Origin: Escherichia coli
Lineage (GTDB): Bacteria > Pseudomonadota > Gammaproteobacteria > Enterobacterales > Enterobacteriaceae
NCBI RefSeq assembly: GCF_003334335.1
Contig: NZ_QOWQ01000136.1
DNA length: 952 nucleotides
Direction: 5' to 3' (one strand)
Under the pieces are notes generated by a model. The model was not told the origin of the DNA. It ran no database searches and was given only the letters and a program-made list of their open reading frames with translations. The position numbers and the translations under genes are program-made. Positions 1 to 952 of the stretch are shown in pieces; the first letter of the stretch is position 1; every line of letters begins with the position of its first letter.

Positions 1-102
1 GTTGAGGTCATGAAAATTGCTGGAGATGCCCAGCTTTCTACCCCATGCACTGACAGCATCATAAACAGCATTGCAACGGGCATTCGCATCAAAGGAGAGT
101 GA
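1..102 (+). CDS. 3' end of an upstream ORF (5' truncated by the window edge); hypothetical protein, C-terminal 33 aa ...VEVMKIAGDAQLSTPCTDSIINSIATGIRIKGE*
   Basis: Frame 1 is open from base 1 to the TGA at 100..102. The stop lies 1 nt before the ATG at 104, a stop/start arrangement typical of translationally coupled phage genes. No similarity recognised from memory; a 33-codon open stretch alone is weak evidence. Confidence 0.4.
   Translation, partial: VEVMKIAGDAQLSTPCTDSIINSIATGIRIKGE
93..97 (+). promoter_or_regulatory. Shine-Dalgarno ribosome-binding site (AGGAG) for the ATG at 104
   Basis: AGGAG at 93..97 followed by a 6-nt spacer and ATG at 104..106; near-consensus SD at optimal spacing. 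It sits inside the last codons of the upstream ORF. Confidence 0.65.
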
Positions 103-103
103 G

Positions 104-295
104 ATGAACGGACAAATCTCAATTGTTCGACCGGGAGCATGTGACGATCGCGAGATACGAATGATTATTCGTCTGGCGATGGGGAGAACAATAACAGCTC
201 TCATTACTCCAGAAAATCTCGCATTAGCTTTAACCGGAAAGTCAGAACTGCCAGTGGAGCTAAAACTGCGAAATGTTGAGATTAAGGTGAAATAG
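104..295 (+). CDS. Small hypothetical protein, 63 aa (MNGQISIVRPGACDDREIRMIIRLAMGRTITALITPENLALALTGKSELPVELKLRNVEIKVK); function unknown
   Basis: ATG at 104 with an AGGAG SD 6 nt upstream; open to TAG at 293..295. The ORF track starts this frame at TTG 71, the first start-like codon after the in-frame TAA at 62..64, but that start has no SD and would overlap the upstream ORF by about 30 nt. Same strand and 2-nt gap to the downstream gene. No family recognised from memory. Confidence 0.65.
   Translation: MNGQISIVRPGACDDREIRMIIRLAMGRTITALITPENLALALTGKSELPVELKLRNVEIKVK
284..289 (+). promoter_or_regulatory. Shine-Dalgarno ribosome-binding site (AAGGTG) for the ATG at 298
   Basis: AAGGTG at 284..289 followed by an 8-nt spacer and ATG at 298..300; it lies within the last codons of the small ORF, consistent with translational coupling. 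Confidence 0.6.
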
Positions 296-297
296 CT

Positions 298-952
298 ATG
301 ACCACTATTACCAAAGAACGTATTGAATTGTTCATTAAAAATCCGCTTGAAAACGGGCTTACTCGTGGCGAACAAATGGAACTGGCACGAATTGCACTGG
401 CATCACTGGAACGCGAACAGATTCGCCACGAGCATGCCAAATGGTCTGACTCCACATTTGGCTGCGTTGGCCCCATTGGTCCACTGAAACACCTCTCAAA
501 AGAGGCACTGGAAGCCGCAGCCGAACCAGACGATCTTAGCGAGTGGGCTGATATGCAGTTTCTGTTGTGGGATGCACAGCGCCGTGCTGGCATCAGCGAT
601 GCTGAAATTACCGCTGCTATGGAAGATAAATTGAAGATCAACATGGAGCGCCAGTGGCCTGAGCCAAAAGATGGTGAGCCTCGCTTGCACATTAAAGAAC
701 CCGGCAACTCTCCGGTAATTCCGGATGGTTTATCCACGGTATGCGCTGAGGCTTATCAGGTTGTAGGAGTTATGGCAGATGCGCTTGGTGTATTCGGTGA
801 TGCAGCAGTACAGAAAGTTCTGGATAACCTGTCACAGCAAAAACTTGTTCACAGAGATGTGCTGCCGTTCTCGCTTCCGGTAACTCCGGATGGTTGGATA
901 AGCTGTAGTGAGCGAATGCCGGATGATGGTCAGCACGTAATTATTTTATGTG
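298..952 (+). CDS. MazG-like all-alpha nucleotide pyrophosphohydrolase (DUF550-like, putative dATP/dGTP pyrophosphohydrolase) fused to a C-terminal DUF551-like module; 3' partial, 218 codons visible, no stop in window
   Basis: Frame 1 is open from ATG 298 to the window end, checked codon by codon with no stop. Translation begins MTTITKERIELFIKNPLENGLTRGEQMELARIALASLEREQIRHEHAKWSDSTFGCVGPIGPLKHLSKEALEAAAEPDDLSEWADMQFLLWDAQRRAGISDAEITAAMEDKLKINMERQWPEPKDGEPRLHIKEPGNSPVIPDG... It contains E-A-L-E (aa 69-72, nt 502..513) and E-W-A-D (aa 82-85, nt 541..552), matching the ExxE...ExxD divalent-metal-binding signature of the MazG/HisE-type NTP pyrophosphatase superfamily. The C-terminal ...PDGWISCSERMPDDGQHVIILC resembles, from memory, the start of DUF551 modules found in enterobacterial prophage proteins. 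Domain assignment is from recollection of family patterns, not a database search. Confidence 0.85.
   Translation, partial: MTTITKERIELFIKNPLENGLTRGEQMELARIALASLEREQIRHEHAKWSDSTFGCVGPIGPLKHLSKEALEAAAEPDDLSEWADMQFLLWDAQRRAGISDAEITAAMEDKLKINMERQWPEPKDGEPRLHIKEPGNSPVIPDGLSTVCAEAYQVVGVMADALGVFGDAAVQKVLDNLSQQKLVHRDVLPFSLPVTPDGWISCSERMPDDGQHVIILC
711..730 (+). repeat. Direct repeat copy 1 (tccggtaattccggatggtt); encodes S-P-V-I-P-D-G-L in the CDS frame
   Basis: Read directly from the sequence: 19 of 20 nt identical to 876..895, in the same reading frame, 165 nt apart start to start. It contains an imperfect palindrome TCCGG-N5-CCGGA. Confidence 0.85.
876..895 (+). repeat. Direct repeat copy 2 (tccggtaactccggatggtt); encodes L-P-V-T-P-D-G-W in the CDS frame
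   Basis: Read directly from the sequence: 19 of 20 nt identical to 711..730 (single T/C difference at repeat position 9). It is immediately followed by the DUF551-like WISCSERMPDDG segment. Confidence 0.85.

Follow-up and report, generated by a model that had tools for sequence, protein, structure and literature searches.

The window (the whole stretch of 952 nt that was analysed) contains three closely packed genes on the + strand, with stop-to-start gaps of 1 and 2 nt:

1..102, + strand: 3' end of an ead/Ea22-like early gene (33 codons plus the stop codon TGA at 100-102), whose translation ends in ...ATGIRIKGE*
104..295, + strand: small early ORF of 63 codons, which matches phrog_1222 over its full length (E = 2.8e-40)
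284..290, + strand: Shine-Dalgarno sequence AAGGTGA of the eaA-type ORF, 7 nt before its ATG, as read from the sequence
298..952, + strand: eaA-type ORF, free of stops; these are the first 218 of about 262 codons, and the ORF runs off the end of the window

The C-terminus of the first gene is also found in the Ea22-like ORF of L002 (from the Stx1a-converting phage LC744180), and ead/Ea22-like genes are annotated beneath the DNA matches to positions 1..102. The 63-codon ORF begins with an ATG at 104, 1 nt past the TGA of the ead/Ea22-like gene. Its stop codon lies at 293-295, and the ATG of the eaA-type ORF, at 298, begins 2 nt later. By position, this small ORF is the equivalent of hkaF from HK620 and eaI from P22; the order of an ea22-type gene, a small ORF, and an eaA-type gene is found in HK620, phiv142-3, and P22.

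The third gene is our main subject. ORF 298-952 covers the 5' portion of a delayed-early gene that belongs to the eaA type of lambda/P22-like phages; in P22, its mosaic equivalent is eaA. The initial annotation had described an ORF with a good Shine-Dalgarno sequence and tight packing; because the ORF, the Shine-Dalgarno sequence, and the spacings read as stated there, its coordinates and description are correct. The feature is already known under the NCBI name "dATP/dGTP pyrophosphohydrolase domain-containing protein."

A promoter scan of the 952 nt found no sigma-70-like promoter in the window. Three terminator-like hairpins are present, about as many as chance would give; the palindromic linker repeat described below accounts for one of them. 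Comparing the window to Rfam gave a single match, to a miRNA at chance level (E = 0.51). As for the proteins, no NCBIfam model matched any of the three window ORFs, no family in PADLOC-DB v2 matched the eaA-type ORF or the upstream ORF at E values of up to 0.1, and none of the PHROGs families that match the window ORFs carries an assigned function. An antisense ORF of 151 codons (282-737) is without support, and we attribute it to the sense gene opposite, as a mechanical by-product.

Modules of the eaA-type protein

The eaA-type protein is modular and has, in this order, a leader helix of 40 amino acids, a PF04447 core, an optional spacer of 55 amino acids, and a C-terminal DUF551 beta-barrel. 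In the window, these modules and the linkers between them are as follows:

298..417, + strand: N-terminal leader module (aa 1-40), also found in eaA-type proteins that lack DUF550
421..708, + strand: PF04447 (DUF550), all-alpha NTP pyrophosphohydrolase domain (aa 42-137), by Pfam
711..730, + strand: direct repeat, copy 1 (20 nt), TCCGGTAATTCCGGATGGTT, encoding the linker SPVIPDG
731..875, + strand: optional middle module (55 amino acids) between the repeats, without a known family
876..895, + strand: direct repeat, copy 2 (20 nt), TCCGGTAACTCCGGATGGTT, encoding the linker PVTPDGW
892..952, + strand: start of the DUF551 (PF04448) module (aa 199-217), by Pfam

The initial annotation had proposed that a MazG-like domain is fused to a DUF551-like module, and the Pfam profiles bear this out, with significant matches to both families. 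PF04447 (dATP-dGTP_PPHyd, formerly DUF550) matches aa 42-137 across positions 1-96 of the 97 in the model (E = 6.2e-42), and PF04448 (DUF551) matches aa 199-217 (E = 3.6e-6). The DUF551 match covers just positions 1-19 of the 68 in that model because the window ends there. We retrieved the full-length gene and its neighbors from LC744180, where it encodes 262 amino acids (positions 6001-6789 of L002) and shares 98.8% DNA identity with the window gene. This protein has PF04447 at the same place as the window ORF (aa 42-137), and its DUF551 is complete, at aa 199-261 (model positions 1-67 of 68, E = 6.3e-17). The gene belongs to a lambdoid (pro)phage operon. The databases also contain proteins that are 98% identical to the window-gene protein over the full length.

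The leader is nearly identical in P22 EaA and in HK620 hkaE, which is a DUF551 protein without DUF550. The leader region (aa 1-49) matches phrog_3323, phrog_10451, and phrog_660, and its structural model is helical, with a pLDDT of 62-77. The middle module matches phrog_28884 at aa 145-195; its model is helical but of low confidence (pLDDT below 50).

The two direct repeats have the consensus TCCGGTAAyTCCGGATGGTT, for which 0 matches are expected by chance, and they mark the edges of the optional module. Both phiv142-3 Eaa and HK620 hkaE lack the 55 amino acids that the window gene has at this place, and the boundaries of the difference run exactly from repeat to repeat. Loci with the middle module have two copies of the repeat and loci without it have one.

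DUF551 is predicted to fold as a Tudor/SH3-like barrel. Among homologs, the core may be followed by DUF551, by "VMVP..PT.." modules, by zinc-ribbon-like modules, or by nothing. The alternative C-terminal modules share the same linkers, and the usual end of the protein is PLPxxPQEVK. Stand-alone DUF550 cores of 140-150 amino acids exist, and cores that stand alone or are fused to something else are common. Thus, DUF551 is a dispensable, portable C-terminal module, one of many that are interchangeable. The fusion of DUF550 and DUF551 is therefore not a special architecture, and the PF04447+PF04448 pair is present in more than 8000 database proteins.

The literature places DUF551 in Ea22_V2 and YfdS. 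Variant V2 of Ea22, YfdS of CPS-53, and HkaE of HK620 are all encoded in early-left regions and have the same DUF551 as the window protein, with the shared signature W-I-x-x-S-E-R-M-P ... T-H-W-M-P-L-P, but they lack the pyrophosphohydrolase domain. The phenotypes reported for early proteins with DUF551 are all indirect: sensitivity to peroxide, and inhibition of replication upon overexpression.

The closest well-known counterpart of the window gene is P22 eaA. The two genes share the arrangement of an ea22/eaD-type gene, a small ORF, and eaA, upstream of xis/int, and the two proteins share the N-terminal leader, a DUF550 core (80% identical), and the C-terminal DUF551 module. P22 EaA is longer, at 317 amino acids, and has additional modules on both sides of the core, so the difference between them is one of mosaic content only.

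The pyrophosphohydrolase core and its characterized relatives

The window ORF contains the acidic motif (ExxE ... ExxD) of the MazG/HisE/dimeric dUTPase superfamily. The initial annotation had reported this signature at nucleotides 502-552, and E69 (502-504), E72 (511-513), E82 (541-543), and D85 (550-552) are encoded at exactly those codons. Two sets of residues define the active site:

502..552, + strand: metal-binding motif E69-x2-E72 ... E82-x2-D85, aligned to E35, E38, E50, and D53 of MazZ from phage S-2L
571..693, + strand: further pocket residues D92, K111, N115, R118, W120, and H131, from a five-way alignment

When we compared the protein to sequences in the PDB, MazZ was the sole relevant match, and it was marginal (a single-sequence search gave E = 0.4, a profile search 0.084). 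Because the match by sequence was marginal, a comparison of folds was needed. The predicted fold does contain the four-helix core of the all-alpha NTP pyrophosphohydrolase superfamily, as the initial annotation had anticipated.

We then aligned the window core with S-2L MazZ, a protein from Acinetobacter phage SH-Ab 15497, gp72 of Klebsiella phage Sushi, and P22 EaA. The columns that are invariant in this alignment are E69, E72, D79, E82, D85, L89, D92, G98, A107, K111, N115, R118, W120, G126, and H131, and they include all of the conserved ligand and pocket residues of MazZ. In MazZ, E34, E35, E38, E50, and D53 are the ligands of three metal ions, D60 touches the 2-amino group of guanine, R83 stabilizes the transition state, and K76, N80, W85, and H95 are supplied by the partner chain (PMC8342488). 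D92, K111, N115, R118, W120, and H131 of the window protein align with D60, K76, N80, R83, W85, and H95, respectively, so the counterparts of the second-chain residues are conserved as well.

Closer homologs give a similar picture. Of 147 representative homologs, 143-145 retain the four residues E69, E72, E82, and D85, and across the catalytic and pocket positions together, conservation is 141-145 of 147 cluster representatives. Among the best 150 representatives, no DUF550 core falls below 70% identity to the query, and a profile of diverse cores cannot be derived from them.

Taken by its alignment, the core of the window ORF is a MazG-superfamily pyrophosphohydrolase domain of the DUF550 type with an intact metal site. 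Because the conserved ligand and pocket residues of MazZ are all retained, the DUF550 domain is very probably catalytically competent. For the substrate, the most economical guess is a guanine-type purine, because the Asp that contacts N2 of guanine in MazZ is kept as D92. This correspondence to MazZ at the level of single residues, with the guanine-N2 Asp among them, offers a concrete and cheap biochemical test of the substrate.

MazZ itself (PDB 7ODY) is a (d)GTP-specific pyrophosphohydrolase and a single-domain chain of 111 residues. It is co-conserved with purZ and datZ and supplies dGMP for the synthesis of 2-aminoadenine (PMC8342488). It differs from the window protein in several ways. 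The sequence similarity is marginal (E = 0.08-0.4). N20 of MazZ, which contacts O6, is apparently replaced by F54 in the window protein, judging from residue spacing alone. Also, neither of the partners of MazZ was seen around the lambdoid gene: purZ and datZ are absent from the annotation of the prophage and phage regions around it (the E. coli prophage, ev017, HK620, and phiv142-3). The eaA-type enzyme may work as MazZ does, but it would not be a member of the Z pathway.

The other characterized relative is the protein from SH-Ab 15497, which has PF04447 with the same ExxE...ExxD...D...K..N..R.W set of residues. This protein of 385 amino acids was reported to convert dATP and dGTP to dNMP and PPi, and the name "dATP/dGTP pyrophosphohydrolase" in Pfam and PGAP comes from it (PMC12884076). 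However, it is distant from the window protein (34% identity over 71 amino acids), it lacks DUF551, and it has two domains: PF18909 (DUF5664) at aa 3-98 and PF04447 at aa 170-244, where the match is weaker (E = 1e-7). A stand-alone DUF5664 protein hydrolyzes dATP, dUTP, and dGTP to dNMPs (PMC12884076). The gene from SH-Ab 15497 adjoins purZ and a gene for an HD phosphohydrolase, whereas neither purZ nor datZ is annotated in the lambdoid loci that were read. Because the source of the label is distant and has two domains, and because the other domain is active by itself in a relative, we regard dATP/dGTP specificity for the enterobacterial clade as a transferred label and as putative. Thus, of the "dATP/dGTP pyrophosphohydrolase" in the initial annotation, the DUF550-type domain stands, and the specificity is borrowed from the distant enzyme of SH-Ab 15497.

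Genomic context and distribution

Near-identical copies of the gene are found in E. coli prophages and in the genomes of free phages. This agrees with the description of the window as prophage DNA, which could not have been read from the window alone. By megablast, some part of the window is matched in 2900 of 5426 complete E. coli genomes, and the products at these matches are named "dATP/dGTP pyrophosphohydrolase domain-containing protein" or "DUF550 domain-containing protein."

In the leftward early region, the genes run on one strand from the recombination genes to an ea22/eaD-type gene, a small ORF, the eaA-type gene, and xis/int. This order is conserved in the E. coli prophage, phage ev017, HK620, and P22. 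In phiv142-3, the local order of ea22-type gene, small ORF, and eaA is all that is shared. The eaA-type gene shares its strand with ral, cIII, kil, gam, bet, and exo. By its location, then, it is an accessory gene of the lambdoid delayed-early ("ea") group, in the pL/exo-xis region. A literature search on P22 EaA turned up nothing useful.

Homologs of the core are also found outside the temperate phages. Using tblastn with the core, we obtained matches in 512 phage records, of which 365 are from Klebsiella phages. One of these is the virulent Klebsiella phage Sushi (family Drexlerviridae, genus Webervirus), whose gp72 (191 amino acids) has the core at its C-terminal end and has no DUF551.

In the Stx1a phage relative, a homolog of DpdA-like queuine tRNA-ribosyltransferases (phrog_887) lies directly upstream. 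A DpdA-like gene is paired with DUF550 in 103 of the 5426 E. coli genomes, and there is no DpdA-like gene in the window.

Overall, the scan re-identifies a gene that public annotation names in the same way, and the question about its role is a modest one. It concerns DNA and a domain pair that are very common in prophages of E. coli and Salmonella, with homologs in virulent Klebsiella phages that are used for therapy.

Possible roles of the enzyme

Judging by the position of the eaA-type gene and by its homologs, it is probably co-transcribed with the leftward early (pL-type) operon, and therefore the enzyme would be made after infection or induction and not in a stably repressed lysogen. If the match to MazZ and to the SH-Ab 15497 protein is a good guide, then the DUF550 domain would oligomerize as MazZ does, with two or three Mg2+ or Mn2+ ions held on E69, E72, E82, and D85. 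It would cut a purine (d)NTP, most likely of the guanine type, between the alpha and beta phosphates to yield (d)NMP and pyrophosphate. As the phage replicates during early lytic growth, often in a DNA-damaged, SOS-induced cell, the enzyme might remove a purine (d)NTP that is non-canonical or unwanted. We would not expect it to be a device for bulk depletion of dNTPs, and DUF551 would act as an interchangeable module for binding or targeting, outside the chemistry. Our preferred reading is that the eaA-type enzyme conditions the purine pool, as a kind of house-cleaning, during phage replication. We chose it by exclusion and by analogy, and we would put its probability at roughly 40%.

The initial annotation had suggested that the enzyme, expressed from the prophage, lowers dATP and dGTP so that superinfecting phages cannot replicate, which would protect the lysogen. 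Bacterial antiphage defenses that deplete dNTPs do exist, which is a precedent, and E. coli prophages very commonly carry the gene. The fit is poor, however: the gene lies in an early leftward operon that is under the control of the repressor and is kept off, no promoter-like site was found in the window, and no PADLOC model matches. A published transcriptome of a Kapi1 lysogen does not name the homologous Kapi1_005 among its most highly expressed genes. In addition, constitutive hydrolysis of purine dNTPs would damage the host too, and close homologs are found in virulent Klebsiella phages of the genus Webervirus, which never lysogenize. We consider protection of the lysogen to be very improbable. 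A role in the lytic cycle, whether in conditioning the pool or in counter-defense, is more likely because the operon is early, the gene does not seem to have its own promoter, and there are homologs in virulent Klebsiella phages. It is similarly hard to believe that the enzyme supplies precursors to, or excludes bases from, a modified genome, as MazZ does in phages with 2-aminoadenine or as a link to 7-deazaguanine would imply. The nearest characterized relatives do act in the Z-genome pathway, and the DpdA-like gene beside the Stx1a phage copy could be read in this way. But purZ and datZ are not annotated in the lambdoid loci that were read, and the DpdA-like pair is rare next to the roughly 2600-2900 genomes with DNA that matches the region. 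With a pair in so few genomes and none in the window, we ruled out 7-deazaguanine modification as a general explanation. Another idea is that catalysis is secondary and that the fold and the DUF551 barrel mainly bind a protein of the host or of a satellite, which could bias the choice between lysis and lysogeny, bias host replication, or derepress another mobile element. The exo-xis region as a whole alters lysogenization and induction (PMC3824215, PMC4699033), overexpression of yfdQRST, which includes the DUF551 protein YfdS, inhibits the initiation of chromosomal replication (PMC4776307), and the predicted Tudor-like fold of DUF551 would suit binding. Against this, the metal ligands and pocket residues are almost absolutely conserved, and because of this near-absolute conservation, catalysis seems to be under selection. 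Furthermore, the core occurs without DUF551, and a modeling study and a physiology study of the exo-xis region do not mention the eaA-type gene. We think that a mainly binding role is improbable.

A role in counter-defense is the main rival to our reading, though we lean against it: an early enzyme could destroy a purine signal, an alarmone, or a toxic analog and so keep abortive-infection effectors off. Candidate targets would be (p)ppGpp, dITP, or another modified purine (d)NTP. The analogy here is to Atd1, a MazG-like enzyme from Pectobacterium phage PcCB7V that depletes (p)ppGpp and protects against the toxicity of TIR-STING (bioRxiv 10.1101/2022.06.09.495361). Like the eaA-type protein, Atd1 is encoded in an accessory region of a phage, has a catalytic domain of the MazG superfamily, and is directed at a nucleotide, but the two are likened by description and not by sequence. 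In the Kongming system, the immune messenger is dITP, and phages counter it with nucleotide-metabolizing enzymes. The location of the gene, in a highly mosaic accessory early region beside the host-takeover genes ral, gam, and abc2, is consistent with counter-defense, as are its presence in temperate and virulent phages alike and the guanine-type pocket that is kept in the window core. On the other hand, the substrates shown for enzymes of the MazZ type are canonical nucleotides, (d)GTP and dATP, and not signals. A broader version, which we view as unlikely, is that the DUF550 enzymes of the eaA type, in lambdoid and T1-like phages, are early counter-defense proteins or detoxifiers, each aimed at one specific guanine-type nucleotide that is non-canonical or serves as a signal (such as dITP, (p)ppGpp, or oxidized or modified dGTP), with the core steered by swappable modules. 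The C-terminal modules (the Tudor-like DUF551, the zinc ribbon, and others) would then guide the core to different host partners, and the swaps between them would occur at the conserved 20-nt linker repeats. Should the enzyme prove to act on an immune signal or on a damaged nucleotide, this would explain a widespread accessory gene.

Modular C-termini and a repeat-bounded segment

When we compared the C-termini of homologues P0121-P0269, we found that very different small modules lie C-terminal to the DUF550 core, the MazG-like pyrophosphohydrolase domain of the eaA-type ORF. These modules include DUF551, 'GWVMVP..PT..AMLAAAP' units, and CxxC zinc-ribbon-like units. PV(I/T)PDG(W/Y) linkers connect them, and the proteins usually end in PLPxxPQEVK. 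Members of the DUF550-core family are built like beads on a string, with conserved linkers. The DUF550 protein of phage ev017 has a cysteine-rich module at its C-terminus, not DUF551, and its gene is followed by an ASCH-domain gene, with an 8-nt overlap of the two (L003 6734-7018).

Within the window, a 165-nt (55-codon) module is flanked by two copies of a repeat:

Window 711-730 and 876-895: 20-nt direct repeat, TCCGGTAAyTCCGGATGGTT

Both copies contain the palindrome TCCGG-N5-CCGGA. Phages phiv142-3 and HK620 have a single copy of the repeat and lack the 55-codon module. The repeat resembles a junction at which domains are shuffled by in-frame recombination.

Start of the eaA-type ORF

In L001, the prophage of E. 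coli G1/2, positions 12218-13051 form one continuous ORF, which the PGAP annotation divides:

L001 12218-12343: 'pseudo' hypothetical protein
L001 from 12317: CDS with an internal start, equivalent to window codon 34 (CTG)

The true start appears to be the ATG at window 298, with its SD sequence and tight coupling.

The coding region also contains a 17-nt inverted repeat at the leader/DUF550 boundary (window 356-372 and 422-438), whose arms are 88% complementary and 49 nt apart. In Kapi1 lysogens, the homologous gene Kapi1_005 has been reported to show a short and very weak antisense RNA signal close to its 3' end (PMC12922286); an Rfam search and a promoter scan of the window identified no counterpart of this signal.

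Upstream neighbours

In the prophage of E. coli G1/2, yfdQ and yfdR (L001 8990-10479) precede the DUF550 gene by about 2 kb within the same early operon. yfdR encodes an HD-domain 5'-deoxynucleotidase; thus, a predicted NTP-to-NMP enzyme and an NMP-to-nucleoside enzyme are encoded in one operon.

Another neighbour is found in the Stx1a phage LC744180 (L002):

L002 5193-5990: 265-aa homologue of queuine tRNA-ribosyltransferase, DpdA-like (phrog_887, E = 4e-103)

A Pfam search of this protein gave no match. Its gene is directly upstream of the DUF550 gene, where it replaces the window's small ORF, and the pair is present in 103 of 5426 complete E. coli genomes. The small ORF itself (window 104-295, 63 aa) matches phrog_1222. 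It also weakly resembles the C-terminal 35 residues of phrog_11564 (E = 2.5e-5), a PHROG annotated as DNA methyltransferase.
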